From IMG/VR virus record IMGVR_UViG_3300044712_002679, positions 116,406-180,405 of that record: DNA of 64,000 nt; one strand, given 5' to 3'. A program made the position numbers and the translations under genes. Positions 6,996 through 46,670 of this stretch are shown here, in pieces. Each line of letters starts with the position of its first letter. Within the stretch, counting starts at the first letter, position 1. The stretch comes from a virus. A model generated the notes under the pieces. The model saw only the letters and a list, made by a program, of their open reading frames with translations, was not told the origin of the DNA and searched no databases.

Positions 6996-7055
6996 AACTT
7001 TTTTATTTGTATATATTAAATAAAAAAGTTCGATTTTAGTTCGAATTAAATTTTT

Positions 7056-7132: not shown

Positions 7133-7142
7133 ATAATTATTG

Positions 7143-7214: not shown

Positions 7215-7222
7215 TGGAGGGG

Positions 7223-7308: not shown

Positions 7309-7535
7309 AATTTTTTAAATTTTTCTTTTAATTTTTCTTTTACTTCATCAGAAGTATAATACCATTTCATATTAATTTGCATTTCAGAAATGATAATTCC
7401 CCATTCTGCTTTTGCTGAAAATTGTGGTTTGTATTTAATTCTTTGATAAATAAATATAAATGGCACACATAAATACCAACGATATCTAATTATTCTTTCA
7501 ATTAAATTGCATTCTTGAAATCTTTTATTTTTCAT
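7299..7535 (-). CDS. hypothetical small protein (78 aa) within tRNA array
   Basis: ORF in tRNA-free gap; start assignment uncertain. Confidence 0.3.
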   Translation of the reverse strand: MKNKRFQECNLIERIIRYRWYLCVPFIFIYQRIKYKPQFSAKAEWGIIISEMQINMKWYYTSDEVKEKLKEKFKKLEK

Positions 7536-7554
7536 AATTTATACATTTTTTAGC

Positions 7555-7638
7555 GGAGAGAAAGGGGGTCGAACCCTCAAGCCGAATAAACGACCGACAG
7601 ATTAGCAATCTGCTCCAATACCATTATGGGACCTCTCC
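7555..7638 (-). tRNA. tRNA-Ser (GCU)
   Basis: acceptor GGAGAGG/TCTCTCC + G73, anticodon arm GCAGA-TTGCTAA-TCTGT, long variable arm. Confidence 0.65.
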
Positions 7639-7728
7639 AAAATCAGAATACATTTTGTGGGTTTGAACCACGTTAACAAAGTTTCAGTTTGTATTTTAAC
7701 CTTTTGTTTTTGCTGTGCGTATTCTTTG

Positions 7729-7801
7729 TGGGGTAGACTGGTTACGATCCAGTTCCTATGGATTTTCAGTCCACCGCAATGACCACATCTGCCACTACCC
7801 C
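7729..7801 (-). tRNA. tRNA-Phe (GAA) with A54/U58-swapped T-loop (ATCGTAA)
   Basis: acceptor GGGGTAG/CTACCCC + A73, anticodon arm GTGGA-CTGAAAA-TCCAT, T-arm ACTGG-ATCGTAA-CCAGT. Confidence 0.65.
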
Positions 7802-7810
7802 AATTATTTG

Positions 7811-7894
7811 CGGAGAAAAAGGGATTCGAACCCCCACACCAGTTTCCCGATTTCACTGTTTTCGAAACAGCTAACTACACCAATAGGCTTCTCC
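7811..7894 (-). tRNA. tRNA-Ser (CGA)
   Basis: acceptor GGAGAAG/TTTCTCC + G73, anticodon arm GCTGT-TTCGAAA-ACAGT, long variable arm. Confidence 0.6.
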
Positions 7895-8055
7895 AAGTTC
7901 AGAATACTTTTGTGACATCGAATCACGACAAATTTCAAGTTTGCTTTACCTTTTTTTGCTGTATGTATTCTTTTTTGTGGACTGTATCGGATTTGCACCG
8001 ATTGTTAGCATAATTACTTTTTTGGTTTGCTATGCTTCAAAAAGCAACAGCCCAT

Positions 8056-8676
8056 TTATTTTTTATATTTATTTTTATTTTTTCCACCATGTGTATCTAA
8101 TGTTGCATTACAATTTGGACATAATATTCTTAAATTTGTTAATCTATGATCATTATTTATCCCATTTATATGATCTAATATTAAACTTATATGTTTTCCT
8201 TTCCAATTTTCATCTTGTCCACACATTTCACACTTTCTTTTTTTTAATCCATCTTCATATAATCTTTCTTTCAAATGTGTTGTATTAAAATTGGAATTTT
8301 CAACTAATATTAATGATAAATCTATTTTTTTATTTAAATTTTTTATTTGAAATTCATATTTAATAAAATGATCAATATTTATATCATATTTTTTAATATA
8401 TTTTTTTAATGTGTTATAAGAAGAACCAAAATTATTAATATCTAATTTAATTAAACATTCTTTATATGTTTTTGAATTTTTAACAATTTCAATTAAATAA
8501 TCTTTTTCATATTTATTTTTTACACTATAATGTGCTTCTATTTTTAATTTTTTTCGTCTTTCCTCAATTGATCTTATTGATCTATCTAATTTAGTTAAAC
8601 AATATTTTAAACCATAAATAGGATAATTTTCAATCAATATATCATCTTCATTTTTTGTCCATTTTTTATTTTTCAT
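8056..8676 (-). CDS. HNH homing endonuclease
   Basis: C-terminal CEMCGQDENWKGKHISLILDHINGINNDHRLTNLRILCPNCN (Cys pairs + DH...N...H...N HNH core); located inside tRNA array. Confidence 0.75.
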   Translation of the reverse strand: MKNKKWTKNEDDILIENYPIYGLKYCLTKLDRSIRSIEERRKKLKIEAHYSVKNKYEKDYLIEIVKNSKTYKECLIKLDINNFGSSYNTLKKYIKKYDINIDHFIKYEFQIKNLNKKIDLSLILVENSNFNTTHLKERLYEDGLKKRKCEMCGQDENWKGKHISLILDHINGINNDHRLTNLRILCPNCNATLDTHGGKNKNKYKK

Positions 8677-8767
8677 TTTAAGTTATTTTTTGTAGTATAT
8701 ATAAATATTTTAAACTACAAAAAATCACTATGAACTATAAAAATTCAAAAAAATAGTTATGGGAATG

Positions 8768-8848
8768 CACGACAGAGAGGATTCGAACCCCTGAACCTTT
8801 CGGTATAGTTTTGGAGACTATCAGCTTTAACCACTTGCATACTGCCGT
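8768..8848 (-). tRNA. tRNA-Trp-like (CCA) with 12-nt extended variable region; D-stem poorly formed
   Basis: acceptor ACGGCAG/CTGTCGT, anticodon arm ATAGT-CTCCAAA-ACTAT perfect, T-arm AGGGG-TTCGAAT-CCTCT. Confidence 0.45.
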
Positions 8849-8867
8849 ATATTTTTGCGGAGGCGAA

Positions 8868-8951
8868 GGGAATCGAACCCCCAAATCATTACTGATTTAC
8901 TTGTTTTCAAGACAAGCCCCTCGTCCATTCGGACCACCTCCAAATACAATT
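8868..8951 (-). tRNA. tRNA-Ser (UGA), second copy
   Basis: acceptor GGAGGTG/CGCCTCC + G73, anticodon arm CTTGT-CTTGAAA-ACAAG, variable hairpin AAATCA/TGATTT. Confidence 0.65.
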
Positions 8952-9001
8952 TAAAAGATTGTTCGTTATTTTTTGCTGTATGTATTCTTTGTGGGGTGAG
9001 G

Positions 9002-9077
9002 TGGATTCGAACCACCATCCCTGGATTTTCAGTCCAGTGCGAAACTGACCAACTGCGCTACCACCCCAATAAGTATA
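9002..9077 (-). tRNA. tRNA-Phe (GAA), second copy, with enlarged D region (extra hairpin CAGT-TTCGC-ACTG)
   Basis: acceptor GGGGTGG/TCACCCC + A73, anticodon arm CTGGA-CTGAAAA-TCCAG, T-arm GGTGG-TTCGAAT-CCACC. Confidence 0.55.
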
Positions 9078-9094
9078 ACGTATGTGCGTCTGGT

Positions 9095-9167
9095 GGGTCA
9101 CGATCCCACGACTCCATCATTAAAAGTGATGTACTCTACCAACTGAGTTACAGACGCAAAAATATTC
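9095..9167 (-). tRNA. tRNA-Lys (UUU), canonical class I, A54/U58-swapped T-loop (ATCGTGA)
   Basis: acceptor GCGTCTG/CAGACGC + A73, D-arm ACTC-AGTTGGTA-GAGT, anticodon arm CATCA-CTTTTAA-TGATG. Confidence 0.75.
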
Positions 9168-9196
9168 AATATGTCAATGAACTTTAAAAAAAATTG

Positions 9197-9282
9197 TGAT
9201 CCCGATGGGACTCGAACCCATGTACAACTTTCGTATCCCACATTAAAAGTGTGGTGCCTCGTTCCAACTCGGCCACGGAATC
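9197..9282 (-). tRNA. class-II (long variable arm) tRNA with anticodon UUU and discriminator A73
   Basis: acceptor GATTCCG/CGGGATC (one G-U), 3-bp D-stem GCC/GGC, anticodon arm CCACA-CTTTTAA-TGTGG perfect, 16-nt variable arm, T-arm ATGGG-TTCGAGT-CCCAT. Confidence 0.55.
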
Positions 9283-15441: not shown

Positions 15442-15882
15442 TTATATATTAATATTAAAATCTCGTTTTATTCTAATTTTTTCTTCTCGATCAAAAATAG
15501 AATTTTTTTTATCATACAGTTTTTTTCCTTTGGCAATACAAATTGTTACTTTACAAAGACCTTGTTTATTAACAAACATATTCAAAGGAATTATTGTTAA
15601 TCCTTTTTCTTTTATTTTGACTTTAAGTTTTTTTAATTCTTTTTTTGTTAATAATAATTTTTTTGGTCGTTTTGGATCATGATTAAATTGATTTGCAAAT
15701 TCATATTCATCAATATGACAATTTACTAAATATAAATCGTTTCCTGTAAACGAACAAAAACTTTCAGATAATGATGCTTTACCCTTTCTTATTGATTTTA
15801 TTTCTGAACCCACAAGCTGAATCCCCGCTACGATTTCATCTTCTATAAAAAATTCGTAGTATGCTTTTTTATTTTTTATCAT
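15442..15882 (-). CDS. smpB: SsrA-binding protein SmpB
   Basis: aligns along full length with E. coli SmpB by eye ([24 protein letters not shown] / [40 protein letters not shown] / KVKIGVAKGKKQHDKR). Confidence 0.85.
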   Translation of the reverse strand: [146 protein letters not shown]

Positions 15883-21670: not shown

Positions 21671-21702
21671 AAAAAAAAAGAGGATTTAAATCCCCTTTTT
21701 TA
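21671..21702. terminator. intrinsic terminator hairpin GGATTT-AAATCC with flanking A/T runs
   Basis: follows stop of 21700-23271. Confidence 0.5.
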
Positions 21703-23271
21703 ATCTAATGTTGTGTATTCAAACCCATCTTTGGTTTTAAAGAATACTATATGTTGAAATTTGCCTAATTTATTTATAATTCCGTGTGCATTAATCCAAG
21801 TAGTTAAACCCTTATTATAATTTAATCGTAATTGTGTAGATGTTCCAACACAACAACTTCCAGAAACCCTAGAAATTGCGTGTGTGTGTCCAACCACATT
21901 TTTAACCGACAATTTTGAAAATTGATTCATTCCACCACGACTGCCAGATGCACCTAAATTTCCATGCATTGAACACAAATATCCATTAACAACAATATTA
22001 TCATTATATGTTAAACAATGAAAATTTGGATATTTTTTATTAATAACATAAGGTACGATACCATTTGGTGCTTCACCTTTTAATATAACACTAGCATATT
22101 CCATATAAGGAATTGCATTTTTTAGTGAATTCATTTTTCTCCAATCAGTTTCACGCAAAAATCTATCAACATGTTCATCATGATTTGATTTCACTATATA
22201 AACATCATAATCTTTTATTTGTGATAACCATTCTAACATTTCATCCAATTCTTTTTGAAGCGAATTTGATCCGTTCATTTCCATTTCGTGTTGTAAAAAT
22301 GGATCATTTGTGTTATGATGTGTTATAGAATATGAATCCATTATATCATGAATAAACAATGTTTTTGGATATAATTTTTGACATAAATCATTTAATGTTT
22401 TATCAATAATTTCAGTATTTACACATTTTGTATGAATATCACCCATTATCAACGCATCAACAGTTTCAATTCTTTTAACAACACCATTATTTACATGATA
22501 AAACAAATCAATAAATTCGCCAGTATCTTTTGCGCTTACTTGTCTAAAGAAATAAGTATCTTCATCTTTTATTTCAACAATAGCAAACCCACTCGAAAAA
22601 TGAAATTCCCCTTTTTTACCAGCCTTTGTATCAGAAAAATTTTGTTTTGTAACTGCACCAGTAGTAAACATTAACTTTGGTTTATATTCATTTATAACTG
22701 GAACTGTTTTTAATTCTATTTTTGGATGTCCAACAACACAAGAATAATCACCTGTCATACCTTCAAGTCCCATTAATGGTGAATAAGCTGTTGGTTGTAT
22801 TTTAACATCACCTAGTACTTGTATTGATTTATTTAAGTTGTGCCTATTTAACGTTAAATGTGGTACAATTTTTTCATCCCACCAATCATTATCAGTATTT
22901 GTATTTATACTTGTTGGGTTGTGATAACGAAAAGGAATTACCAAAATTTCAGCATCAAGAACATCTTTATATGATAACATATTATTCCATAACCCAATAT
23001 TTACACTTGTTGCATTTTGTGCAGAAGTAATAAAATAATATTTTTTTGATTTATCGTGTTGTTTTAATTTTGCAAGTTTTATTTGTTCAGGTATAATAAT
23101 TACTTTTTCTTTTATTCCTAATTTTTCTGAACACCATCTTCTAAGTGTTCTTTCGGATTTATTTGTAAAATCCATAAGTATTTTCATCCTATCATCCCAA
23201 GTTTTTGTTCTATCCCAATATATACTACGAATTTTTTCAATATCTTCATCTTTTAGGTCTTTAAATTTCAT
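21700..23271 (-). CDS. calcineurin-like metallophosphoesterase with N-terminal HTH-like region
   Basis: LIMGDIHTK (GDxH), VKSNHDEH (GNHD/E), GHTH blocks in C-terminal half. Confidence 0.65.
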   Translation of the reverse strand: MKFKDLKDEDIEKIRSIYWDRTKTWDDRMKILMDFTNKSERTLRRWCSEKLGIKEKVIIIPEQIKLAKLKQHDKSKKYYFITSAQNATSVNIGLWNNMLSYKDVLDAEILVIPFRYHNPTSINTNTDNDWWDEKIVPHLTLNRHNLNKSIQVLGDVKIQPTAYSPLMGLEGMTGDYSCVVGHPKIELKTVPVINEYKPKLMFTTGAVTKQNFSDTKAGKKGEFHFSSGFAIVEIKDEDTYFFRQVSAKDTGEFIDLFYHVNNGVVKRIETVDALIMGDIHTKCVNTEIIDKTLNDLCQKLYPKTLFIHDIMDSYSITHHNTNDPFLQHEMEMNGSNSLQKELDEMLEWLSQIKDYDVYIVKSNHDEHVDRFLRETDWRKMNSLKNAIPYMEYASVILKGEAPNGIVPYVINKKYPNFHCLTYNDNIVVNGYLCSMHGNLGASGSRGGMNQFSKLSVKNVVGHTHAISRVSGSCCVGTSTQLRLNYNKGLTTWINAHGIINKLGKFQHIVFFKTKDGFEYTTLD

Positions 23272-26190: not shown

Positions 26191-27068
26191 TTTTCTTCGA
26201 AATATGAAAATTTGTGTAATTTTTTAATAAAAATTTGACCTTGCTTGCGTATATAAGCTTCCACTTTTTTAATATTCTTATTATCAAAATATTTTCCAAT
26301 ATTATTTTTTTCTGTTTTAGATAATTCATCAAAATTAAAATTAAAATTACACATATCTTTATAATACTTAAGTGGATATTTATTTTCTTCTTCTTTTATT
26401 GTATTTAATAAATTTTTGGATTTTTTCACTTTAAGATAAAATTCGTGTAATCTTGCGGATAATTCATCTTCGTTTGCCAAGTAACAATAAACTAAAAATT
26501 TTTTATATGATTCAGAACCATCGGTTGTTGAAGTTAAATCAGTAATTGATGCGATACTACCAAATCTAACTTCATGTATAAATAAGTCAACAATATCACC
26601 CTTAAAAATGCGTTTAGTATCATCTGAAAAAAATTCATTTCGACTACGAGAATATAATATCTTACTTTTAATAGTTCTATCTACTAAATGTTTAATTTCG
26701 TGAGTTAATAGTTCTTTAGTATCATATTCTTTATTTTCAATACCCAACATTATATCAACATAATATTTATTTCTTTTGTTTTTTTGTTTTTTTGGTATAA
26801 TATTAACTGAAGCTATTGCTCGATTATAATATATACTAACTATAATATTACTTATAAAAACTAATTCTGTATTTTTTAATTGCCATGATCCATTAATATA
26901 AACTTCATTGGGCTTTAAAATATTTATATTAAATTCTGAAATATCAACAATTGTTTGGGTTTCTTTTTTATCAATCGCATCTTCAATTTGTTTCCACATT
27001 TTTTCGACAATTTCAAGTGTTAATTTATTTACACCCAATTTTTCAAATATTTTAAAAGTTGTTATCAT
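26187..27068 (-). CDS. hypothetical protein with HExxH motif (possible zinc metallopeptidase)
   Basis: ELLTHEIKHLVD. Confidence 0.4.
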   Translation of the reverse strand: MITTFKIFEKLGVNKLTLEIVEKMWKQIEDAIDKKETQTIVDISEFNINILKPNEVYINGSWQLKNTELVFISNIIVSIYYNRAIASVNIIPKKQKNKRNKYYVDIMLGIENKEYDTKELLTHEIKHLVDRTIKSKILYSRSRNEFFSDDTKRIFKGDIVDLFIHEVRFGSIASITDLTSTTDGSESYKKFLVYCYLANEDELSARLHEFYLKVKKSKNLLNTIKEEENKYPLKYYKDMCNFNFNFDELSKTEKNNIGKYFDNKNIKKVEAYIRKQGQIFIKKLHKFSYFEEN

Positions 27069-28588
27069 AATTCAATAATTTTGATTTTTTTCTTTTTACA
27101 CAATGAAATCAATTTTTCTTTATTTTCTTGGTCTGATTCAGATACTTTAAGATAGTTATCAGTTAATCTGATTTCTTTAATGTAATTTATTGGTATTTTA
27201 TTTGCATGAATTTGAATTTCCGAATATAAATTATAAAATCTATCCCCTTCGATAAATACTTTACCTTTACTTGTTTCAAAAACACGACCATCATTTTTAT
27301 GATTTAAATTTTCTAAAATTGTTTTTGATTCATATTTATATTCTGGATAAAATTTTTCTTTTACTAAATTTGAATAAATTTTTTTTAATTCTTTTTTCTT
27401 ATATATTGTATCCACATTTTCTGCCACACTATCCAATAATGTAAAAGTCACTTTAAATTTTTCATAAATAGATGGTTTAAAATATATCATAACCGAACCA
27501 TGACCAGTTTCATATCCACCATCATTAAACCAATCCGGAATACAAAATATCAAATCTTCTGTTCCAAATTTTTCAAGTTCAATTTCTTTTCTTTCATTCC
27601 ACCAAGTTTCATTTTCATCTATAATTTGAATTTCTTTTTTTAATTCATTTCTACTCATCAAAAATCCTTTTTCAAGTATTGATATTACGGATTCATATGA
27701 TGATAAGTGTCTAGCAAATGGATATTCATCATTTTCAGCATCATTTTCAGCATCATTTTCAGCATCATTTTCAGCATCATTTTCAGCATCATTTTCAGCA
27801 TCATTTTCAGCATCATTTTCAGCATCATTAAATAATATACCAATTCCTTGTATTTGATTATTATTAGTTTGATATGTAAATTCTTTATATATTTTACCTT
27901 CTTTAATTTCATTCCAAAATTTAACAACACCTGGACAAGTTGAATCGTTAATGTCATGAAACATAACGATTTTAGCATATTTACCCAAATTTTCATAATC
28001 GGTAGATACACCTTCATATGAATGATCAGCATCAATAAATATAAAATCATATTTTTGACCTTTAAAATCTTCACTTGTTCCTATATGTAAATTAATGTAT
28101 TGTTTTATATCTTCAGTTAATCCTTTATCTGAAATATCAACACCAATAGATTTTAAATTTGGATTTTTGAGTTTTAAAATATTATCAATTAATATATGGG
28201 TTCCACCTTTAAATATACCCACCTCAACATATGTATTTATATCATATTTCAACAATTCTAATAAAGCATCAGCTATTTGTTTTGGGGTTTGAAACATAGC
28301 TTCTTCGTTTCTATCATAAACCATATATTGATTCCATTCACCATAACCATCTCTATCTTCTACACATAAACCATAATCGCAAACTAAATTTATAATATCA
28401 ACTTCTTTAATATCGGTCGCATTTAATTTAGAAATACTTTCAATTAATTTTTTATTTTTACTAAATTTGTTATCTTCAAATATATTTATATTTTTGTGCG
28501 TGAAATCACTAAACCGTTTAATCATAATCAAAAAATCTATTTTACATATATATAAAAAAATTAAACAACATTCTAATAAAAAAAACAT
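27065..28588 (-). CDS. CmcI/TylF-type class I SAM-dependent O-methyltransferase domain protein with (ENDA)n repeat and C-terminal extension
   Basis: YVEVGIFKGGTHILIDN ... YDFIFIDADHSYEGVSTD ... HDI; ENDAENDA... from 12-bp repeat. Confidence 0.6.
   Translation of the reverse strand: MFFLLECCLIFLYICKIDFLIMIKRFSDFTHKNINIFEDNKFSKNKKLIESISKLNATDIKEVDIINLVCDYGLCVEDRDGYGEWNQYMVYDRNEEAMFQTPKQIADALLELLKYDINTYVEVGIFKGGTHILIDNILKLKNPNLKSIGVDISDKGLTEDIKQYINLHIGTSEDFKGQKYDFIFIDADHSYEGVSTDYENLGKYAKIVMFHDINDSTCPGVVKFWNEIKEGKIYKEFTYQTNNNQIQGIGILFNDAENDAENDAENDAENDAENDAENDAENDAENDEYPFARHLSSYESVISILEKGFLMSRNELKKEIQIIDENETWWNERKEIELEKFGTEDLIFCIPDWFNDGGYETGHGSVMIYFKPSIYEKFKVTFTLLDSVAENVDTIYKKKELKKIYSNLVKEKFYPEYKYESKTILENLNHKNDGRVFETSKGKVFIEGDRFYNLYSEIQIHANKIPINYIKEIRLTDNYLKVSESDQENKEKLISLCKKKKIKIIEL
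27727..27838. repeat. 12-bp tandem repeat (catcattttcag) x~9 inside CDS
   Basis: read directly; in-frame, encodes NDAE repeats. Confidence 0.85.
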
Positions 28589-28620
28589 ATATAAAACTGT
28601 ACAATAAATAAAAAATATTA

Positions 28621-29154
28621 ATGAAGCAAAAAGAATCAGAAAACAGAATTAATTATTCAATTAAAGATTTAACCGTAAGGTTAGTTGGTGATAATGTTAC
28701 AAATGGTGTAATTGACACTAAAAGTGCAATAAAATTGGCTAGAGATATGGAATTAGATTTGGTCGAAATTTCGGGTCCAGTTAACGGAAATCCATCAATT
28801 TGCAAAATAGTTGACTATCAAAAATATCTTTACGACAAAAAGAAAAAAGATAAAGATCAAAAGAAAAAGCAAAAATTAAGTCAGTCAGAAGTCAAAGAAA
28901 TTAGAATGACCCCGCATACTGATGAACACGATTTTAATTTTAAATTAAATCATGCTAAAAACTTCTTAACCAATAACGATAAAGTATTAGTTTCAGTATT
29001 CTTTAAGGGTAGAGAAATATCATATAAAGAACAAGGTCAAATTGTTTTATTAAAATTTGCAAAGGAATTGGAAGATATTGGCATACCTGAGTATTTACCT
29101 AAACTAGAAGGAAAAAAAATGCTAATGATGATTAAACCTAAACCAAAAAAATAA
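28621..29154 (+). CDS. infC: translation initiation factor IF-3
   Basis: aligns by eye with E. coli IF3 across N- and C-domains (NRIN..VRL.G; DLVEISP.A.PPVCRI.DY.K.LY; KKKQK...VKEI..P..DEHD...KL.....FL; GRE). Confidence 0.85.
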   Translation: MKQKESENRINYSIKDLTVRLVGDNVTNGVIDTKSAIKLARDMELDLVEISGPVNGNPSICKIVDYQKYLYDKKKKDKDQKKKQKLSQSEVKEIRMTPHTDEHDFNFKLNHAKNFLTNNDKVLVSVFFKGREISYKEQGQIVLLKFAKELEDIGIPEYLPKLEGKKMLMMIKPKPKK

Positions 29155-29192
29155 AAAAGCAGAATAATCTGCTTTTTTATTTTTTAAAATTG
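29153..29192. terminator. bidirectional intrinsic terminator AAGCAG-AATAAT-CTGCTT between convergent genes
   Basis: A-run / hairpin / T-run. Confidence 0.65.
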
Positions 29193-29606
29193 GGGAATAT
29201 CACGCTTATTTATATTAATATTATAATCTTTTAATATATTAAACATTATATTTGCTGTTTTTCTATCTGCATATAGAGAATTACGAATACTATTATTATA
29301 ATATATTACATTGTTTTCAATATTAAATGTTATATTTTGAATTCGTACATCTTGAATTTCACCTGTTCCAATTAAGCATAACATTTTAGGATGTGGTAAT
29401 TCAATTTTAAACACATTAAAAAGAAATGGTGTCGTATCATCATCTACTGGTTTAAAAGTTATAGAATCACTTATATATTTTTTTAAAATTAAATCAGATG
29501 CCATTTTTATATATTGTTTATGTCTAAGATCATCATAATTTTTAACTTTATCTATATATGAATTATATGTGTTGACCATTAATTCATTAAATTTAAAAAT
29601 TTTCAT
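29184..29606 (-). CDS. hypothetical protein (140 aa)
   Basis: ORF. Confidence 0.45.
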   Translation of the reverse strand: MKIFKFNELMVNTYNSYIDKVKNYDDLRHKQYIKMASDLILKKYISDSITFKPVDDDTTPFLFNVFKIELPHPKMLCLIGTGEIQDVRIQNITFNIENNVIYYNNSIRNSLYADRKTANIMFNILKDYNININKRDIPQF

Positions 29607-29649
29607 ATTATTTTTTTTAATATATATATTAATTTAAAAATGATAAAAT

Positions 29650-30456
29650 ATGATAAAATTATTTGAAAAATGGTTAATTTTTGAAAGATTAAATTCTGCT
29701 AAAGGTCGAAATATGATGAAATTGGTCGATTATTTTGAAAAATCCATCAAAGAAAAAGAAGCAGAATTACCAGAATTCTTTCAAATACATTATCCCCACA
29801 TATTCGATAATTGGGCTTTAGAAAATTCAAACTATTTTGTAGAATTAGATGAATATGATTCAGAAGAAGAAGCATATGAAAATGTTATATATCCAACAAC
29901 ATATTATGAATTAGAATCTGATATTCTAGAAAAATACAAAAATTTTTTAATTGAAATTGTTGATAATGTTTTTAAAAAAAATCCATATAATTTAGATTTG
30001 TGTATATTACCATTATATGTAACATATACTTATGAAGATGATGTAATTGATGGGTGGCTAGTTCATTTTACTGATTATGAAAAAAATATTAAATCTATAC
30101 TAAAATCACAACACTTCCAAGGAATTCCAAATATGTATAATTTAGCAATAACAAGCACAAATGAAGATGATTATAGTGAAGATGGTTATTGTTTTGGATT
30201 TGATATATCTGATGTATATGAAAATTTTAAAGATGGATATTCACATTATGGTAATTTTGGTATTTTATTTAAATCTAGTGGAATAAAACTTTACCATAAT
30301 GGTGATGATGAACATCAAGTAGTATTCATTGGAAATCAAGTCAGTAATTTAATTCCTTTTTGGTATGATCCAAATACAAAAGAACTTTACAATAAAAATA
30401 AGACTATTAGGTCAAATGATTATGAATACTTTTTTGAACAAATCATTGAATCTTAA
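29650..30456 (+). CDS. hypothetical acidic protein (268 aa)
   Basis: ORF. Confidence 0.5.
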   Translation: MIKLFEKWLIFERLNSAKGRNMMKLVDYFEKSIKEKEAELPEFFQIHYPHIFDNWALENSNYFVELDEYDSEEEAYENVIYPTTYYELESDILEKYKNFLIEIVDNVFKKNPYNLDLCILPLYVTYTYEDDVIDGWLVHFTDYEKNIKSILKSQHFQGIPNMYNLAITSTNEDDYSEDGYCFGFDISDVYENFKDGYSHYGNFGILFKSSGIKLYHNGDDEHQVVFIGNQVSNLIPFWYDPNTKELYNKNKTIRSNDYEYFFEQIIES

Positions 30457-30707
30457 TTGTTGTGCTTATTATAATATTTAGATACAGTATAATTAAACCA
30501 ATTTTTTGCAACTAAGTTAGCTTCGATTGAATAAATTAATAAATCCTTTATTTTATTGAGAAAATTATAAGTCATTTCATTTTGAAACATAACATTAGAA
30601 AAAGAATTTTTAATTAAACCATCTTCATAATCAAAGCCAGATTTAATATTATCATTTATATGTTTTAATTCATATAATTCTTTTATTTGTATATCTTTTT
30701 CTATCAT
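30453..30707 (-). CDS. hypothetical small protein
   Basis: first of seven tightly packed minus-strand genes 30453-33355. Confidence 0.4.
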   Translation of the reverse strand: MIEKDIQIKELYELKHINDNIKSGFDYEDGLIKNSFSNVMFQNEMTYNFLNKIKDLLIYSIEANLVAKNWFNYTVSKYYNKHNN

Positions 30708-30716
30708 AGTATGTTA

Positions 30717-31307
30717 TTATTTTGTGTTTAAATCAAATTCCACTATTTTATCTTTTGGTTTGATTGTTATTATATTAACAATTTTTTTCATATTATATAA
30801 CACCATCATTTTACCATTACCAAATGGATTATTCATTAAATCGTAATCTACTCCATTTTTAATATAAAATTCCCTAAGATATTTGGTATTTGTTGATTTT
30901 ATTGCTTTTTCATTTAAAATAATGTTATTAAAAATATATCCTGGAACTTTACCATCTTTGATATATTTTTCTAATCTATTCATTACCATTTTTTTCAAAC
31001 TTCCAATTACATAAAATTTTATAAATTCTTTAACCTTTTCAATATCTAAAAATACTTTATTAATATCAACACCATATTCAACTGTAATCAAATATAATTT
31101 TCGACTTCCTTTTGCATATCGTATTGCGGTACTATAATCTGTTGCTATATATAAACCAGCACCATACTCATATCTACCATTTTTTTGTGCAATAATATCA
31201 TCATAATGGTCAAGATTTCCACCATGCCAAAAATTCATAGTGTTTGGTATGTTGGGTGGAAAAATTTCTTCTTCGTTTAATTTGAATTTATCAAATTGTA
31301 ATATCAT
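30717..31307 (-). CDS. hypothetical protein (196 aa)
   Basis: operon context. Confidence 0.45.
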   Translation of the reverse strand: MILQFDKFKLNEEEIFPPNIPNTMNFWHGGNLDHYDDIIAQKNGRYEYGAGLYIATDYSTAIRYAKGSRKLYLITVEYGVDINKVFLDIEKVKEFIKFYVIGSLKKMVMNRLEKYIKDGKVPGYIFNNIILNEKAIKSTNTKYLREFYIKNGVDYDLMNNPFGNGKMMVLYNMKKIVNIITIKPKDKIVEFDLNTK

Positions 31308-32896: not shown

Positions 32897-33355
32897 TTAA
32901 ATTAATGATTGAAATTTTACATATTTTTTAGGACACAAATAAAAATTTCGATAACTTTTTTCTTTTTTATCATACAATTCTTTAAAAAACCAATTTTTAT
33001 ATGTACTACTATATATTATTAAACACTTGGTTTTAGAAGCATTTAATATTATATAGCAATATAATGTCCTTATATTTCTTTTATCTATTTTATATTTTTC
33101 ATCAACAATTATATCTTGGTATGGTACATCATCAAATGTCATAAAATCTATTTCTTTCCATTGTTTGACTTCAACCCGCATTGATATTTTTATATCACCA
33201 TCATCAGTATGTTCATATCTCGATTCTTCATCTGGTGTTACAGTATATGGTAAAATCTCACTATCAAAACCCAATTTTGTCATCCAATTATTAACAACAA
33301 TTGTTGCTTTTTTAGCATCATTTAAATTTTGCGTAAAAATGTTTCTGGGTTTCAT
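32897..33355 (-). CDS. hypothetical protein (152 aa)
   Basis: 4-nt overlap with polB fragment stop. Confidence 0.45.
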   Translation of the reverse strand: MKPRNIFTQNLNDAKKATIVVNNWMTKLGFDSEILPYTVTPDEESRYEHTDDGDIKISMRVEVKQWKEIDFMTFDDVPYQDIIVDEKYKIDKRNIRTLYCYIILNASKTKCLIIYSSTYKNWFFKELYDKKEKSYRNFYLCPKKYVKFQSLI

Positions 33356-34722
33356 ATTGAAAATATTGAATTTAATACTGACAATCTTTTATTTATTGTT
33401 GGTAATCCTATTGGTTCGAGAAAACGATTCACAATATGTAAGAATGTTAAATCAAATTGTTCATCAAAATCAATTTTAACACCTTCTTTTTCTACAATTT
33501 CATATGGATGCATACTTCTTTGAAAAGCAAAAACATTATTTTTAGGATGATTACAATAATAATATTTTATTCTTCCACCTCTTATATTATCATATTTTAC
33601 TTTATATTCCGAATTTTTGTTTAATAAATAATTGTGTAATGCTGCAGCTTTAACACCAAAATGCGCACCTTTAATACATACAACATCGGTTACATCATCT
33701 ATACACTTAATTGAATAATTACTACAACTAGTGGTCATACTAATATCTTCGATATCTGCCATTATAAATTCTCGCTTCATATCTTTAACCAATTTTAAAA
33801 CTTTTCTAATATCAATATTATTAGGATTTCCAAATATATACCTTAAAAAATCATAAATATTTTCTCTAACAAATGGTGGTGTAGAAGATTTAACAATCTC
33901 AACACCCTTTGGATAAAAATATGTCAAATTTTCATAAAAAATTCCATCTTCCCAAACAACATTGTTTATGTAATTCTTTTTTTGAATATGTAATGCTGAA
34001 CGATTAATTGTTTCAAGTTCAAATACATGAAGATTTTTAACACCATATCTTGATGCATATTCAACAAGCCAACTGTTATATAATTTTTCAACAAATATTC
34101 TATTAGCATGTAATATCCAATCCAATTCTTCACCCATATAATTAGATGAATCAATCATTGGTTTAAAAGAAATATATAATGAATCGGTATCACCATATAT
34201 GATTATTGGCTTTTCTTTTGGAATTTGTTCTATATGTGAAAAGTCACCAATTATTCTTTTAAATAAAATATTATAACTTTTAAATTCTTTCTTATCTTCA
34301 ATTAAATCGAATTTATTTATATTTAACTTTTTTAATAACCCATCATCACCATCTAATGAATTGTGTGGATAATTAATATTCATTCCATTAATATCCAACA
34401 AGAAATATTTACCTTCTTTTTCGGCTATATATTCTAAACCTAATCTTTTGTGGGTTTCGATATCCAAATGCCACTCATTATAAAAATATTGTTCAATTTT
34501 TTTCAACATAAAATTTATAACATCACGACCATGTGCAGTAATAGCATTTGCTATATGTGAATTTGATATTACAAAATGCGGATTTGCGAATGCGCCGTAT
34601 GTTCCGTTAATCACGAGCTTAAGTGCTAATTGCATCGCTTTCGCTCTATCATATTCAGCTTTTGTTTCGTCTATTCGACTTTTTAATTCCGCAATTTTTT
34701 GTCTTTTTTCATCAGGTGTCAT
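33352..34722 (-). CDS. family-B DNA polymerase, C-terminal half only (motif B to thumb)
   Basis: KLVINGTYGAF (KxxxNSxYG motif B), IIIYGDTDSLY (motif C), IQKKNYI (KKRY-like); ORF begins ~40 aa before motif B; no exonuclease or motif A region. Confidence 0.75.
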   Translation of the reverse strand: MTPDEKRQKIAELKSRIDETKAEYDRAKAMQLALKLVINGTYGAFANPHFVISNSHIANAITAHGRDVINFMLKKIEQYFYNEWHLDIETHKRLGLEYIAEKEGKYFLLDINGMNINYPHNSLDGDDGLLKKLNINKFDLIEDKKEFKSYNILFKRIIGDFSHIEQIPKEKPIIIYGDTDSLYISFKPMIDSSNYMGEELDWILHANRIFVEKLYNSWLVEYASRYGVKNLHVFELETINRSALHIQKKNYINNVVWEDGIFYENLTYFYPKGVEIVKSSTPPFVRENIYDFLRYIFGNPNNIDIRKVLKLVKDMKREFIMADIEDISMTTSCSNYSIKCIDDVTDVVCIKGAHFGVKAAALHNYLLNKNSEYKVKYDNIRGGRIKYYYCNHPKNNVFAFQRSMHPYEIVEKEGVKIDFDEQFDLTFLHIVNRFLEPIGLPTINKRLSVLNSIFSI

Positions 34723-40488: not shown

Positions 40489-41808
40489 ATGACAAAAACA
40501 GAAGAATTTATCCAAAAAGCGAAACTTGTTCACGGGGATAAATATAATTATTCTAAAGTCGAATATATTAATAATCACACTAAAGTTACTATTATTTGTC
40601 CAAAGCATGGTGAATTTAAACAACAACCAGCAAATCATTTAAATAATATGGGTTGTCCAAAATGTGTTGGCAATATAAAATTAACAACAACAGATTTTTT
40701 ATCAAAAGCAAAAGAAATTCATGGGGATAAATATGATTATTCAAAAGTTGAATATGTCGGAATATTTAATCACGTGAAAATAATTTGTCCAATTCATGGG
40801 GAATTTGAACAAACACCAAGACAACATCTTAAAGGTCGTGGGTGTTATAAATGTGGTGGTACACAAAAATATACACAAAATGAATATGTTATAAAAGCAA
40901 AGGAACTTCACGGGGATAAATATGATTATTCAAAAGTTAATTATTTGGGTGGTAGAAAAGATATAATTATAATTTGTCCTAAACACGGTGAATTTAAACA
41001 AAAAGCTGGTCAACATATACATGGTTCAGGTTGTCCAAATTGTGCTGGATTAGGGTTTATATTTCTATCATTTGAAGAAGCAAAAATTTTTGTTAAAAAT
41101 CTTAATTTACAAACACAAAATGAATGGCAAAAATATTGTAAATCGGGAAATAAACCTGATAATATACCAATAGCACCCGAAATTGTTTATAAAAAAGTTT
41201 GGATTAACTGGGGTGATTGGTTGGGTACATTTAAAATTTCAAATCAAAAAAAAGAATATTGGACATTTGAAGAAGCTAGAATATTTGTTAGAAATCTTAA
41301 TTTAAAATCAATAACAGAATGGAAAAGATATTGTAAAAATGAAAATAAACCTAGCAATATTCCAAATGATCCATACGGAACGTATAATAAATATGGTTGG
41401 TTAAATTGGGGTGATTTTTTAGGCTCATTTACATTAGCACCAAAAGATAGACAATATTTATCATTTGAAGAAGCAAGAAATTTTGTTAGAACACTTAATT
41501 TAAATTCAAAAGAAAAATGGGTAAATTATTGTAAATCGGGAAGTAAGCCTAACAATATTCCAAATGATCCATATAGTTATTATAAAGATGATGGTTGGAT
41601 TGATATGGGGGATTGGTTGGGTACATTTACAATTGCCCCACGATATAAACAATTAAATTATCTTTCAGAAGAAGAATTCATACAATTTATTAAAGATACA
41701 TTTCCAAATTTATATGGTGCTGAACTTCATAAAGCATATGAAGCTTGGTGGGATGAAAATAAACCAGAATATTTACCAAAGGATGTTGCTAAATATTATA
41801 ATAAATAA
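40489..41808 (+). CDS. repeat-family protein 1: 4 N-terminal Zn-ribbon modules + 5 x ~57-aa KSGNKP.NIP/WGDWLG repeats + conserved C-terminal tail
   Basis: modules HGDKYDYSKVEY..(K)V.IICP.HGEF.Q.P..HL.G.GCP.C x4; repeats (FEEAR.FVR.LNL.S...W..YCKSGNKP.NIP.DP...Y...GW..WGDWLGTF); tail LSEEEFIQFIKDTFPN...AYEAWWDENKPEYLPK. Confidence 0.7.
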   Translation: MTKTEEFIQKAKLVHGDKYNYSKVEYINNHTKVTIICPKHGEFKQQPANHLNNMGCPKCVGNIKLTTTDFLSKAKEIHGDKYDYSKVEYVGIFNHVKIICPIHGEFEQTPRQHLKGRGCYKCGGTQKYTQNEYVIKAKELHGDKYDYSKVNYLGGRKDIIIICPKHGEFKQKAGQHIHGSGCPNCAGLGFIFLSFEEAKIFVKNLNLQTQNEWQKYCKSGNKPDNIPIAPEIVYKKVWINWGDWLGTFKISNQKKEYWTFEEARIFVRNLNLKSITEWKRYCKNENKPSNIPNDPYGTYNKYGWLNWGDFLGSFTLAPKDRQYLSFEEARNFVRTLNLNSKEKWVNYCKSGSKPNNIPNDPYSYYKDDGWIDMGDWLGTFTIAPRYKQLNYLSEEEFIQFIKDTFPNLYGAELHKAYEAWWDENKPEYLPKDVAKYYNK

Positions 41809-41811
41809 TTT

Positions 41812-43515
41812 ATGTCAAAAAAACGACCTTTTTTATCATTTGAAAATGCTAGATTTTTTTCACGATCTATTAATTTAAAAAGTGGGAAAGAATGGAAAGA
41901 ATTTTGCAAATCAGGTAATAAGCCTGATAATATACCAACAAATCCATATGAAGTATACAAAAAAGAATGGATTAGTATGGGTGATTGGTTAGGGACATTT
42001 TCGGTTCATACTAAAAATTTTTTATCATTTAATGAAGCAAGAATTTTTGCTAGATCAAATAATTTCAAAAATAGAGAAGATTGGAAATTATATTGTAAAT
42101 CGGAAAATAAACCTAATAATATTCCGACAAATCCATATGAAGTATACAATAAAGAATGGATTAGTTGGGGGGATTGGCTAGGAACAAAAATAGGATTTGA
42201 AGGATTTTTATCATTTGAAGAAGCTAGAAATTATGTTAGAAATCTGAACTTAAAATCAAATAAAGAATGGTATAAATATTGTAAGTCAGGAGATAAGCCT
42301 GATAATATTCCATCTACACCAAATAAAAAATATAAAAATTGTGGTTGGACTAATTGGTATGATTGGTTTGGAACAAAAATTGAATTTGAAGGATTTTTAT
42401 CATTTGAAGAAGCTAGAAATTATGTTAGAAACCTGAATATAAAATCATCAAATGATTGGGCTAAATATTGTAAATCTGGAAATAAACCTAATAATATTCC
42501 AAGTAATCCACGTGAAGTATATAAAAATGAATGGAATGATTGGGGTGATTGGTTAGGAACATTTACTATATCAACACAAAACTATGTGTATTTATCATTT
42601 GATGATGCAAGAAATTTTGCTAGAAATCTTAATCTAAAAACACAAACATATTGGAGGAAGTATTGTAAATCGGGAAATAAACCTGATAATATACCAAGTG
42701 ATCCATCCAAAGGTTATAAAGATAAAGGTTGGCTTAGTTGGGGTGATTGGTTAGGTACAAAAATTGGATTTAATGGGTTTTTACCATTTGAAGATGCAAG
42801 AAATTTTGTTAGAAATCTTAATCTAAAAACCCAATATGAATGGAAAGTGTATCTTAATAGTGGAAACAAACCTAACAATATTCCAAATAAACCACGGGAT
42901 GTATATAAAGATTGGATTAGTATGGATGATTGGTTAGGTACTTTTGTGATATCAACCCATAAACAAAAATTTTTATCATTTGATGAAGCAAGAATATTTG
43001 TTAAAAATCTTAGATTAATCGGTAAAGATGATTGGTATAATTATTGTAAAAGCGGAAACAAACCAACGGATATTCCAACTACACCCAATACCGTTTATAG
43101 TGAATGGGTGGGTTGGGGTGATTGGTTAGGAACATATAATATAGCATCATTTGATAAAGAATTTTTATTGTTTAATGATGCGAGAAATATTATTAGAAAC
43201 AAAAATTTTAAAAATCAAAATGAATGGTTTGAATATTGCAAATCGGGAAATAAGCCAAAAAACATTCCAAGTGATCCATCAAAAACCTATATAAATGATT
43301 GGATTGATTGGGGTGATTGGTTGGGTACATTTACTATTGCAACCCAAAATAAACAATTAAATTATCTTTCAGAAGAAGATTTCATACAATTTATTAAAGA
43401 CACATTTCCAAATATTCCACCTGGAATTGAACTTCGCAAAGCATATGAAGCTTGGTGGGATGAAAATAAACCTGATTATTTACCAAAGGATGTTGCAGGA
43501 TACTACAATAAATAA
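41812..43515 (+). CDS. repeat-family protein 2: ~9 tandem ~57-aa repeats + conserved tail
   Basis: same repeat and tail as 40489-41808; 3-nt intergenic spacing. Confidence 0.7.
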   Translation: MSKKRPFLSFENARFFSRSINLKSGKEWKEFCKSGNKPDNIPTNPYEVYKKEWISMGDWLGTFSVHTKNFLSFNEARIFARSNNFKNREDWKLYCKSENKPNNIPTNPYEVYNKEWISWGDWLGTKIGFEGFLSFEEARNYVRNLNLKSNKEWYKYCKSGDKPDNIPSTPNKKYKNCGWTNWYDWFGTKIEFEGFLSFEEARNYVRNLNIKSSNDWAKYCKSGNKPNNIPSNPREVYKNEWNDWGDWLGTFTISTQNYVYLSFDDARNFARNLNLKTQTYWRKYCKSGNKPDNIPSDPSKGYKDKGWLSWGDWLGTKIGFNGFLPFEDARNFVRNLNLKTQYEWKVYLNSGNKPNNIPNKPRDVYKDWISMDDWLGTFVISTHKQKFLSFDEARIFVKNLRLIGKDDWYNYCKSGNKPTDIPTTPNTVYSEWVGWGDWLGTYNIASFDKEFLLFNDARNIIRNKNFKNQNEWFEYCKSGNKPKNIPSDPSKTYINDWIDWGDWLGTFTIATQNKQLNYLSEEDFIQFIKDTFPNIPPGIELRKAYEAWWDENKPDYLPKDVAGYYNK

Positions 43516-43518
43516 TTT

Positions 43519-44823
43519 ATGTCAAAAAAATTAACAACAGAAGAATTCATTATTAAAGCCAAAGGTGTTCATGGTGATAAATATGATTATTCTAAAGTTG
43601 ATTATGTTAATAATCATATTAAAGTTACTATTATTTGTCCAATACATGGTATTTTTGAACAAACACCAAGTAATCATTTACAAGGTAAGAATTGTATTAA
43701 TTGTGGTTCTTATAATCAATCTAATACCATAAAAAATAAAAATATATCATTTGAAGAATCAAGAAATTTTGTTAGAAATCTTAATTTGAAATCGCAAAAA
43801 GAATGGAATAAATATATTAAATCAGGTAATAAACCTGATAATATTCCAAGTATGCCAAATCGAATATATAAAAATAAAGGTTGGATTAGTATGGGTGATT
43901 GGTTAGGAACTTTTACAATAGCATCATATAAAAAAATTTTTTTACCATTTGAAGAAGCAAGAATTTTTGCTAGAAATCTTAATTTAAATTCACAAAAAGA
44001 ATGGTTAAAATATCGAAAATCTGATAATAAACCTGATAATATTCCAAGTAATCCATATAGTGTATATAAAAATGATGGTTGGTTATCATGGGGTGATTGG
44101 TTAGGAACAAAAAATGATTTTAATGGATTTTTACCATTTGATGATGCTAGAAATTTTGCTAGAAATCTTAATTTAAAACCATATGATAAATGGAAAAAAT
44201 ATTGTAAATCAGGAAATAAACCTAACAATATTCCAAGTAGTCCTGATAAAGTATATAAAAATAAAGGTTGGATTGATTTTGGTGATTGGTTAGGTTATAA
44301 AAAAGATTTTTTATCATTTGAAGAAGCCAGAACTTTTGTTAGAAATCTTAATTTAAAATCACAAAAAGAATGGATTGAATATTGTAAATTAGGAAATATG
44401 TTAGATAATATACCAAGTAATCCACAACATACTTATAAAAATAAAGGTTGGATTAGTTGGGGTGATTGGTTAGGCACATTTACTATTTATAAAAACAATT
44501 TTTTACCATTTGAAGAAGCAAGAATATTCGCAAGAAATCTTAATTTAAAATACAAAAAGAAATGGATTGATTATTGTAAATATGGTAATAAACCAAATAA
44601 TATTCCATCTGATCCATATCGTACATATAAAAATAATGGATGGGTTAGTTTTGGTAATTGGTTAGGTACTGAATATTTATCGGAAGAAGAATTCCAACAA
44701 TTTATTATTGATAATTTTTCAGATGTTCATCCTGATGATATGAATAAATTTTATGAAATATGGTGGAATGATAATCAACCAATTAATTTACCAAAATATC
44801 CAAAAGAATATTATAATAAATAA
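43519..44823 (+). CDS. repeat-family protein 3: 1 Zn-ribbon module + ~6 repeats + tail variant
   Basis: HGDKYDYSKVDYVNNHIKVTIICPIHGIFEQTP..HLQGKNCINC then repeats; tail LSEEEFQQFIIDNFSDVHPDDM. Confidence 0.7.
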   Translation: MSKKLTTEEFIIKAKGVHGDKYDYSKVDYVNNHIKVTIICPIHGIFEQTPSNHLQGKNCINCGSYNQSNTIKNKNISFEESRNFVRNLNLKSQKEWNKYIKSGNKPDNIPSMPNRIYKNKGWISMGDWLGTFTIASYKKIFLPFEEARIFARNLNLNSQKEWLKYRKSDNKPDNIPSNPYSVYKNDGWLSWGDWLGTKNDFNGFLPFDDARNFARNLNLKPYDKWKKYCKSGNKPNNIPSSPDKVYKNKGWIDFGDWLGYKKDFLSFEEARTFVRNLNLKSQKEWIEYCKLGNMLDNIPSNPQHTYKNKGWISWGDWLGTFTIYKNNFLPFEEARIFARNLNLKYKKKWIDYCKYGNKPNNIPSDPYRTYKNNGWVSFGNWLGTEYLSEEEFQQFIIDNFSDVHPDDMNKFYEIWWNDNQPINLPKYPKEYYNK

Positions 44824-44877
44824 AATAAAAATTTTTTAAAAAACTTACAATAAATTTGCTTTTTCGTAATAAAAACT

Positions 44878-44885
44878 TATATTTG
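44878..44885 (+). promoter_or_regulatory. TATATTTG promoter-like element upstream of 44914
   Basis: TAnnTTTG. Confidence 0.4.
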
Positions 44886-44913
44886 CACAATGTTTAATTA
44901 AAAATATAAGTTT

Positions 44914-45546
44914 ATGAAAAAGTTTTTATCATTTGAAGAAGCAAAGGCATTTGCACAAAGTTTAAATTTAAAATCCTTAAAGGATTGGAAAGATTACTGT
45001 AAATCGGGTAACAAACCTAATAATATTCCAAATGATCCGTACAGTGCATATAAAAACAACAATTGGATTTCGTGGGGTGATTGGTTGGGTACATTTAGGG
45101 TTTCGAATAGGAACAAACAGTTCATATCTTTTGAAGAAGCAAAAGAAATTATCAAAAAATTAAATTTGAAAAACCGAAAAGATTATGAAAAATATCAATC
45201 AGATATGATTGAAAAACTTAATAATGCGACTGTACCAACAAATCCAAATGTTGTATATAGTAGTTCTTGGAAAAGTTGGAATGATTTTTTGGGTATAGAA
45301 CCAAATGAATTTCTTCCATTTGAAGAAGCAAGGAATTTTGTGCGATCACTTAATTTAAAAAGTGTTCGGGATTGGGAAAAATACAGAAAACAAAAACCTG
45401 ATAATATTCCATCTTTACCAAGTAGTTATTATAAAGAAAAATGGATAAATTGGGGGGATTGGTTAGGAACAAACAATGTTGCTACTAAATACGTATCATT
45501 CGAAGATGCAAAAAATATTGTTCGTAAATTAAAAGATTCAAAATGA
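44914..45546 (+). CDS. repeat-family protein 4 (short; ~3.5 repeats, no Zn ribbon, no tail)
   Basis: same repeat unit. Confidence 0.65.
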   Translation: MKKFLSFEEAKAFAQSLNLKSLKDWKDYCKSGNKPNNIPNDPYSAYKNNNWISWGDWLGTFRVSNRNKQFISFEEAKEIIKKLNLKNRKDYEKYQSDMIEKLNNATVPTNPNVVYSSSWKSWNDFLGIEPNEFLPFEEARNFVRSLNLKSVRDWEKYRKQKPDNIPSLPSSYYKEKWINWGDWLGTNNVATKYVSFEDAKNIVRKLKDSK

Positions 45547-46670
45547 AAAAGGAATTTTTACCATTTGAAGAAGCAAGAACATTCGTAAGATGCCTTAATT
45601 TAAAATCTTTTAAAGATTGGAAAAAATATTGTAAATCTGGAAATAAACCTATTAATATCCCATCTTGTCCTCATGTTATATATAAAAATGATTGGATTAG
45701 TTGGGGGGATTGGATAGGAACATTTTCAGTTCATACTAAAGAATTTTTACCTTTCGAAGAAGCAAGAAATTTTGTTTATACTAAAAATTTGAAAAATCAA
45801 GCTGAATGGTGGATATATTGTAAATCTGGAAATAAACCTGATAATGTGCCGTGTTCACCTGACATAATTTATAAAAATAATGGTTGGAATGGTTGGTATG
45901 ATTGGTTTGGATATGATAAAATATCGGTTTTAAAAAATAACTTCATAATAAAAGCTAACATTGTCCATAATAATAAATTTGATTATTCAAAAGTTAATTA
46001 TATTAATGTTAAAAATAAAGTTATAATTGGATGTCCCATACATGGTGATTTTGAACAAACTATAAATGGACATTTAAATGGTAGGGGGTGTTCAAAATGT
46101 GCTAAAATTGATTATAGATCATTTGAAAATGCTAGAAATTTTGTTCATTCTTTAAATTTACAAACGAATGCGGAATGGATAATTTTTAATAAAAGCGAAA
46201 ATATGCCTAAAGATATTCCACATAACCCAAATGTTGTATATAAAGATAATGGTTGGATTAGCATAGGTGATTGGTTAGGAACAAATTCAATTGCACCACA
46301 ATATATGAAATATAGAACATTTGAAGAAGCTAAAATTTTTGCACAAAAGCAAAATTTAAAATCTAAAGATGAATGGAAAGTATTTAAAAAATCCGAAAAT
46401 TTTCCTATTGATATACCTAAAAATCCAAACGTTACATATAAAGATAATGGATGGATTTCTTGGGGTGATTTTTTAGGTACATTTACATTAGCACCAAAAA
46501 ATATATCAAAAAATTATTTATCGGAAGAAGCAGCCAAACAATTTCTTATTGCTAATTTTTCAGATGTTCATCCCGATGATATGGATGATGCTTATGAAAA
46601 ATGGTGGAATAATAATCAACCAATTAATTTACCAAAACATATAAAATTACATTATAAATTGTTTTATTAA
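45543..46670 (+). CDS. repeat-family protein 5: repeats flanking an internal Zn-ribbon module + tail
   Basis: HNNKFDYSKVNYINVKNKVIIGCPIHGDFEQTINGHLNGRGCSKC internal; tail LSEEAAKQFLIANFSDVHPDDM. Confidence 0.65.
   Translation: MKKEFLPFEEARTFVRCLNLKSFKDWKKYCKSGNKPINIPSCPHVIYKNDWISWGDWIGTFSVHTKEFLPFEEARNFVYTKNLKNQAEWWIYCKSGNKPDNVPCSPDIIYKNNGWNGWYDWFGYDKISVLKNNFIIKANIVHNNKFDYSKVNYINVKNKVIIGCPIHGDFEQTINGHLNGRGCSKCAKIDYRSFENARNFVHSLNLQTNAEWIIFNKSENMPKDIPHNPNVVYKDNGWISIGDWLGTNSIAPQYMKYRTFEEAKIFAQKQNLKSKDEWKVFKKSENFPIDIPKNPNVTYKDNGWISWGDFLGTFTLAPKNISKNYLSEEAAKQFLIANFSDVHPDDMDDAYEKWWNNNQPINLPKHIKLHYKLFY

Follow-up and report, generated by a model that had tools for sequence, protein, structure and literature searches.

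The gene at 28621-29154 (+) of the window, which is the whole 64,000-nucleotide (64-kb) stretch of viral DNA analyzed here, encodes a 177-aa protein that profile searches and structure prediction identify as a complete two-domain translation initiation factor IF3 and not a fragment. Protein comparisons place it in a phage-only IF3 lineage of at least 109 protein clusters and argue that it is a long-retained, functional phage gene rather than a recent capture. We propose with moderate confidence that it is a working phage IF3 that would act on the host 30S subunit and sustain or bias initiation toward AUG-initiated phage messages without Shine-Dalgarno (SD) sequences.

The IF3 coding sequence begins with ATG and ends with TAA, and an in-frame TAA located three codons upstream of the ATG makes a longer N terminus impossible. 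A Pfam profile search matched both domains over the full profiles, namely IF3_N (PF05198; residues 10-80, E 9.5e-20, profile positions 1-70 of 70) and IF3_C (PF00707; residues 90-174, E 5.2e-32, profile positions 2-86 of 86). The NCBIfam infC equivalog model TIGR00168 was matched at positions 2-170 of 170 with 168.2 bits against a curated cut-off of 60 bits, and the phage family phrog_9787 was matched at 8e-45 (residues 7-174, profile positions 3-167 of 168). The best match in the PDB was E. coli IF3 (residues 6-176, E 1.9e-34), and Thermus and Geobacillus IF3 chains were matched as well. The preliminary description, made from the sequence alone, had aligned this ORF with IF3 in both domains, and the IF3_N, IF3_C, and TIGR00168 matches agree with it; the profile matches were found, and the C-terminal domain was not missing. 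The IF3 motifs quoted there are present in the protein, although one of them was slightly mis-transcribed and reads LVEISGPVNGNPS, not LVEISP..NPS. The N-terminal domain (residues 10-80) is encoded at 28648-28860 (+), as delimited by IF3_N and the fold match to 6o6d and 1tif, the lysine-rich interdomain linker helix (residues 66-87) at 28816-28881 (+), as delimited by the AlphaFold secondary structure, and the C-terminal, predicted 30S-binding domain (residues 90-174) at 28888-29142 (+), as delimited by IF3_C and the Foldseek match to 1tig.

The AlphaFold model of the window IF3, which drew on 56 homologues, had a mean pLDDT of 84.5 and comprised an N-terminal alpha/beta domain, a long linker helix at residues 66-87, and a C-terminal beta-alpha-beta-alpha-beta-beta domain. 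Foldseek superimposed the C domain on 1tig with a TM-score of 0.93 and an rmsd of 1.1 A and the N domain on 6o6d with a TM-score of 0.85 and 1.8 A. The flexible lysine-rich linker expected of IF3 is present as YDKKKKDKDQKKKQK, which forms helix 66-87 in the model. Comparison of the functional residues demonstrated that the universally invariant IF3 core is intact in the window protein. Residues D101, H103, D104, K108, G130, R131, G139, and G164 are invariant in the alignment, and the kept core includes Y66, K68, Y71, D104, K108, G130-R131, and E163-G164, with Y66 at the E. coli Y70 position in the column table. The importance of four C-domain arginines of E. coli IF3 (R99, R112, R116, and R129) was reportedly described by Petrelli et al. 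in 2003. All four positions are non-basic in the window protein (R99 to T, R112 to N, R116 to N, and R129 to F), and two of them are non-basic in Bacteroidota, too. In E. coli IF3, R25 contacts the elbow of the initiator tRNA, and a tRNA-elbow role has also been given to R66 (PMC9723500). The window residue at the R25 position, R20, is 100% conserved in both the phage clade and Bacteroidota, and that at the R66 position is K62, a position occupied by K in 71% of the Bacteroidota sequences.

The window has a GC content of 25% and short, tightly packed genes, with matches to 70 PHROG families. It carries HNH, GIY-YIG, and LAGLIDADG endonucleases, a family B DNA polymerase (PolB), and a primase-like gene. 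The A1-like protein encoded at 21700-23268 was closest to phages of Maribacter, Cellulophaga, and Flavobacterium (Flavobacteriia), and PolB was closest to LR756501/503 (735 kb), LR756502, LR745206, and LR756504, with 42-48% identity. The 634-735 kb huge phages were assigned to the Mahaphage clade with predicted Bacteroidetes hosts (Al-Shayeb 2020), and, judged from polymerase similarity, the window phage appears closest to these genomes. Structural genes were absent from the 64-kb window, and the terminase of the syntenic relative L099 used as a query detected no terminase in it; in L099 itself, whose IF3 is 79% identical, the large terminase is located 9 kb from IF3. Relatives were found on IMG/VR contigs of up to 330 kb, and the longest contigs with relatives measured 298 and 330 kb. 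A megablast search with 24 kb of window sequence as the query gave no match among 50,697 phage records. Based on the PHROG families, PolB, the A1-like protein, the L099 terminase, and the IMG/VR relatives, we concluded that the window IF3 belongs to a phage genome. In cellular genomes, rpmI and rplT normally lie directly after infC. This arrangement, which is typical but not defining of infC, was detected by a simple motif test in 47 of 68 Bacteroidota loci, whereas rpmI-rplT (L35/L20-like starts) was absent from the window and from 11 related phage loci.

A search of metagenome proteins retrieved more than 100 clusters of 172-180 aa with 59-92% identity to the window IF3, followed by Bacteroidota-type proteins of 198-216 aa with 56-58% identity. 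In a search of 185,579 species genomes, the 80 top matches all came from Bacteroidota, with 51-60% identity. In a neighbor-joining tree, the window protein, 104 metagenome clusters, and four IMG/VR contigs formed a clade without bacterial genome sequences. The monophyly of this phage clade had a bootstrap of just 54/100, so that shared indels and synteny are the stronger grounds for regarding it as a distinct lineage. The gene order of a primase-like gene, IF3, an 84-aa gene, a 177-aa gene, and PolB recurs in the relatives L002, L003, L005, L007, L096/L097, L099, L101, and L103, and none of the relatives retrieved departs from this order, not even the deepest one checked (P0101, 59% identity). 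The neighboring genes have identities of 57-91%, similar to those of IF3. The dN/dS ratios of the least saturated pairs were 0.088 (window versus L097) and 0.086 (L003 versus L005), and the values over all phage IF3 pairs ranged from 0.06 to 0.32. As judged from these comparisons, the phage IF3 evolves under purifying selection and has been vertically inherited in the replication module of a lineage of very large phages. One 88% identical IF3 (P0005, on contig L098) carries the NCBI label Candidatus Dojkabacteria bacterium; its 11.5-kb contig is syntenic with the window, with an A1-like gene, a primase-like gene, and IF3, and probably derives from a phage but was binned with a candidate-phyla genome.

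Several features distinguish the phage clade from Bacteroidota IF3. Of the phage clade, 94-97% carry two additional linker residues (alignment columns 141-142), an insertion that all 93 Bacteroidota sequences lack. K occupies E. coli position 86 in 101 of the 109 phage-clade sequences, compared with A or S in Bacteroidota, and L occupies E. coli position 125 in 96 of the 109, compared with K in 91 of 93 Bacteroidota. The number of residues preceding R-I-N has a median of 8 in the phage clade versus 20-42 in Bacteroidota, whose basic, Gly/Pro-rich N-terminal extension is absent from the phage clade, and the prolines of the near-invariant SPNAxPPVC loop of the N domain have been lost. The start codons also differ. 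A near-cognate start (AUU/AUA/AUC) is typical but not defining of infC, and the window gene lacks one; all of the phage IF3 copies examined start with ATG and have an in-frame stop 0-8 codons upstream of it, except L009, which has a longer open frame. Half of the 80 nearest Bacteroidota infC genes (40 of L016-L095) lack a canonical start (ATG, GTG, or TTG) in the upstream open frame. Their conserved I-A start position, after which the basic, Gly/Pro-rich extension begins, is coded by ATA (35 genes) or ATC (5 genes), so that gene callers would misplace the starts of these 40 genes. These ATA/ATC starts agree with the experimentally proven ATA start of Flavobacterium johnsoniae infC, for which IF3 autoregulation has been proposed (PMC7797042). 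An ATG was present in the upstream open frame of 31 of the 80 genes. The infC genes of Chitinophagaceae and of Weeksellaceae-like bacteria use ATG, and Chitinophagaceae are among the closest cellular matches.

The scarcity of SD sequences at the window starts, which had been pointed out previously, was borne out by an SD core in 3 of 89 ORFs compared to 5.5 expected, which is no more than chance would give. Most positions between -18 and -2 of the start regions are 50-67% A, compared to a genome average of 37%, and such SD-less, A-rich start regions fit a Bacteroidota host. The motif TAnnTTTG was mildly enriched across the window (166 observed versus 142 +/- 11 expected) and clustered 22-30 nt upstream of about a dozen starts. 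This spacing to the ATG implies short leaders, as the preliminary description had proposed for genes behind TAnnTTTG, and not leaderless mRNAs. An earlier argument that linked the phage IF3 to leaderless mRNAs goes in the wrong direction. IF3 prevents initiation on leaderless mRNAs (PMC9723500), and the argument is weak both for this reason and because the leaders in the window are short, not absent.

The second translation-related protein gene of the window encodes SmpB (15442-15882, -; Pfam SmpB 1.8e-52; 65% identity to the SmpB-annotated gene of L101). Despite its presence, tmRNA was found neither by ARAGORN nor by Rfam within the 64-kb window. The tRNA array at 5091-9282 (-) contains 14 tRNAs called by ARAGORN (Lys x3, Ser x4, His x3, Phe x2, and Trp x2), and Rfam adds one 135-nt match at 5309-5443 (-) that covers the full model with 45.5 bits, was uncalled by ARAGORN, and could represent a tRNA that contains an intron or some other large insertion. 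Of the toolkit of SmpB and 16 tRNAs described initially, SmpB was thus confirmed, and the number of tRNAs was revised to 15.

The IF3 gene was initially thought to stand alone between two intrinsic terminators, and only the downstream one is real. It is a bidirectional intrinsic-terminator-like hairpin at 29153-29185, recognized by thermodynamic folding and consisting of an A-tract, GCAGA, an ATAA loop, TCTGC, and a T-tract, with folding energies of -20.2 kcal/mol (z -6.7) on the + strand and -20.5 kcal/mol (z -7.3) on the - strand. This hairpin separates the convergent IF3 and 29184-29606 genes and is kept downstream of IF3 in the close relative L097; a consensus terminator scan of 27000-30600 flagged no terminator, the downstream hairpin included. 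The region 28560-28625 upstream of IF3 had a fold energy of 0 kcal/mol and no structure, and an upstream terminator was therefore rejected. According to its sequence, fold energy, and motif content, 28589-28620 is instead an A-rich, unstructured divergent intergenic region, which reaches back to 28526 if the neighboring gene uses its second ATG. A motif search of this region revealed no SD sequence and no exact TAnnTTTG; the nearest + strand copies of the motif are at 28462 and 28489, within the neighboring ORF. In three relatives, TAnnTTTG is located 20-21 nt upstream of the IF3 ATG.

The divergent neighbor (27065-28588, -) is a methyltransferase-like gene (Pfam Methyltransf_24, 1.1e-06) that adjoins IF3 in the relatives L002, L007, and L101 as well. 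It contains an internal (NDAE)n repeat, a perfect tandem repeat at 27707-27835 coding for NDAE about eight times, and the relatives match just the N-terminal half (~230 aa) of its product. The convergent neighbor (29184-29606, -) encodes a 140-aa protein that had no Pfam or PHROG match; it adjoins IF3 in the closest relatives, with 82-83% identity in L096 and L097. In other relatives, the IF3 genes are located within strings of co-directional, overlapping genes, and isolation is therefore not a conserved feature; the isolated IF3 cassette is specific to the window genome and its closest kin. A 196-aa ORF 1.5 kb from IF3 (30717-31307, -) had sub-threshold matches to a PARP catalytic domain (5.5e-05) and DUF3990 and may encode an ADP-ribosyltransferase.

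In the mechanism that we favor, the phage would make its own IF3 during infection, and the C-terminal domain of this factor would bind the platform of host 30S subunits. The phage IF3 would keep the subunits dissociated and recycled and would enforce AUG and initiator-tRNA selection, and in this way, once the supply from the host becomes limiting or is shut off, initiation could be sustained on, or biased toward, phage messages that start with AUG and lack SD sequences. AUA and AUC belong to the start-codon class that is repressed by IF3 itself. With its AUG start, the phage copy should therefore escape the negative feedback of the host and could lift the IF3-to-30S ratio over the host set-point. 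In a host whose infC starts with AUA or AUC, the additional IF3 would also be expected to deepen the repression of that gene. Given the 31 of 80 Bacteroidota infC genes with an upstream-frame ATG, escape from autoregulation would matter only if the host uses AUA/AUC. More speculatively, behavior on the 30S subunit may be altered somewhat by the clade-specific changes, namely the missing N-terminal extension, a longer (+2) and more basic linker, the loss of the proline loop, and the replacement of K by L at E. coli position 125. We infer the 30S binding, the expression timing, and the effect on host infC, and the evidence pointing to 30S binding, anti-association, and start discrimination by the phage factor consists of residue conservation and purifying selection. 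The non-basic residues at the C-domain arginine positions, the 54/100 bootstrap, and the failure to find a promoter for the window IF3 speak against this explanation. A more far-reaching version, in which a re-engineered IF3 without the N-terminal extension and with the longer linker would be immune to autorepression through its AUG start, shut down a host infC that starts at AUA or AUC, replace host IF3 on 30S subunits, alter the formation of 30S initiation complexes on SD-less mRNAs, and favor phage messages, is in our opinion improbable.

The clade-wide differences (extension absent, linker insertion, K86, L125, and prolines lost) could also be those of an altered-specificity or antagonist factor that would occupy the IF3 site of the host 30S subunit and change the outcome, for example by stabilizing 30S initiation complexes on SD-less mRNAs or by displacing host IF3. 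This possibility draws on the finding that F. johnsoniae IF3 failed to stabilize 30S complexes in vitro, whereas E. coli IF3, which is without the Bacteroidota extension, did so, an in vitro difference that was left unexplained (PMC7797042). However, all universally invariant IF3 positions are kept and purifying selection is strong, the pattern of a normal factor, and we regard altered specificity as unlikely. Somewhat more doubtful is a role as a helper of ribosome rescue or recycling together with SmpB and the tRNAs, in which IF3 would mainly keep 30S subunits free and would act through anti-association, post-termination recycling, and countering of hibernation rather than through start-site choice. 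The SmpB gene is 13 kb from IF3 in the window and 5.5 kb from it in L101, huge phages carry RRF, release factors, tmRNA, and SmpB beside initiation factors (PMC7162821), and Iyer et al. proposed ribosome rescue or support of phage translation (PMC7824862). On the other hand, IF3 and SmpB are not adjacent, and the window yielded neither a tmRNA nor RRF nor any gene related to hibernation. The helper role is moreover a subset of canonical IF3 activity, which sequence alone cannot separate from the working phage IF3 that we favor.

Two further explanations concern the origin of the gene. The nearest cellular relatives all belong to one phylum, Bacteroidota, which is consistent with a host origin and could suggest that the gene was taken from a host not long ago and is carried along as a neutral passenger. 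Among the best 80 matches from the 185,579 species genomes, however, no bacterial genome was more than 60% identical, the lineage of at least 109 clusters has shared indels, the synteny holds in the deepest member checked (P0101), and dN/dS is about 0.1-0.2; recent host capture was rejected on these grounds and is very improbable. The GC content of 25% and the Dojkabacteria label of P0005 would fit DNA of cellular origin, for example that of a symbiont with AT-rich DNA among the Bacteroidota or of a bacterium from the candidate phyla, with IF3 as the housekeeping infC. Such an origin was rejected as barely credible, since no rpmI-rplT operon follows IF3, and the window has 70 PHROG families, many homing endonucleases, and a redundant tRNA array; the Dojkabacteria-labelled contig is itself syntenic with the window, a terminase is located beside the same block in a relative, and relatives are present in IMG/VR.

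Comparison with known systems indicates which features of the working phage IF3 are shared. Bacterial IF3 (infC; TIGR00168), especially that of F. johnsoniae and other Bacteroidota, has the same domains, lysine-rich linker, and fold, and the equivalents of E. coli R25, Y70, K72, Y75, D106, K110, and R133 are common to the window protein. Bacteroidota IF3 is 51-60% identical to it, but the window copy differs in its lack of the operon, AUG start, missing extension, longer linker, and degraded proline loop. The phages LR756500-LR756504 (Al-Shayeb 2020) are among the best phage-database matches to the window IF3 (49-52% identity) and are the best long-genome matches to both IF3 and DNA polymerase; they have the same predicted host phylum and likewise carry initiation factors beside tRNAs and SmpB. 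At about 50% identity and with no nucleotide-level match to these phages, the window represents a separate, widely sampled sub-lineage with relatives on contigs of 60-330 kb. The large phages Atu_ph07 of Agrobacterium, Phosso of Sinorhizobium, and Sharanji of E. coli likewise encode full-length IF3. These cultured jumbo-phage proteins are 43-47% identical over ~81% of the query and are independent acquisitions from other host phyla.

Overall, IF3 is rare among phages, with matches in 28 of 50,697 phage records. A report from 2020 described it in huge phages alongside IF1, RRF, release factors, tmRNA, and SmpB (PMC7162821), a role in ribosome rescue or phage-translation support was suggested by Iyer et al. 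(PMC7824862), and phage IF3 has also been discussed for phage Sharanji (PMC11895373). Phage IF3 is thus already known from Atu_ph07, Phosso, Sharanji, the huge phages, and phrog_9787; the present analysis adds a description of a large IF3 lineage of Bacteroidota phages with specific differences from host IF3. Phage-borne initiation factors have been listed in several genomic surveys. The present lineage provides a naturally occurring variant of Bacteroidota IF3 that initiates at AUG, lacks the N-terminal extension, and has a longer linker, and it bears on how Bacteroidota initiate without SD pairing. In vitro and reporter systems exist for F. johnsoniae, in which differences between the IF3 variants are directly testable. 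A variant that differs from host IF3 would reveal viral rewiring of initiation and the role of the Bacteroidota-specific extension, and one that behaves like host IF3 would simply be a supply gene.

The family B polymerase ORF (33352-34722, -) spans profile positions 137-453 only, and the PolB-type 3'-5' exonuclease domain (DNA_pol_B_exo2) is found on a separate window ORF, so that the polymerase appears to be split. Pfam INT_rpt repeats were detected in five window ORFs, of which four were identified individually in 40489-46670 (+), and one INT_rpt ORF also had DUF723 and treble-clef zinc-finger matches. The 40489-46670 block looks like a cluster of homing-endonuclease-like genes.
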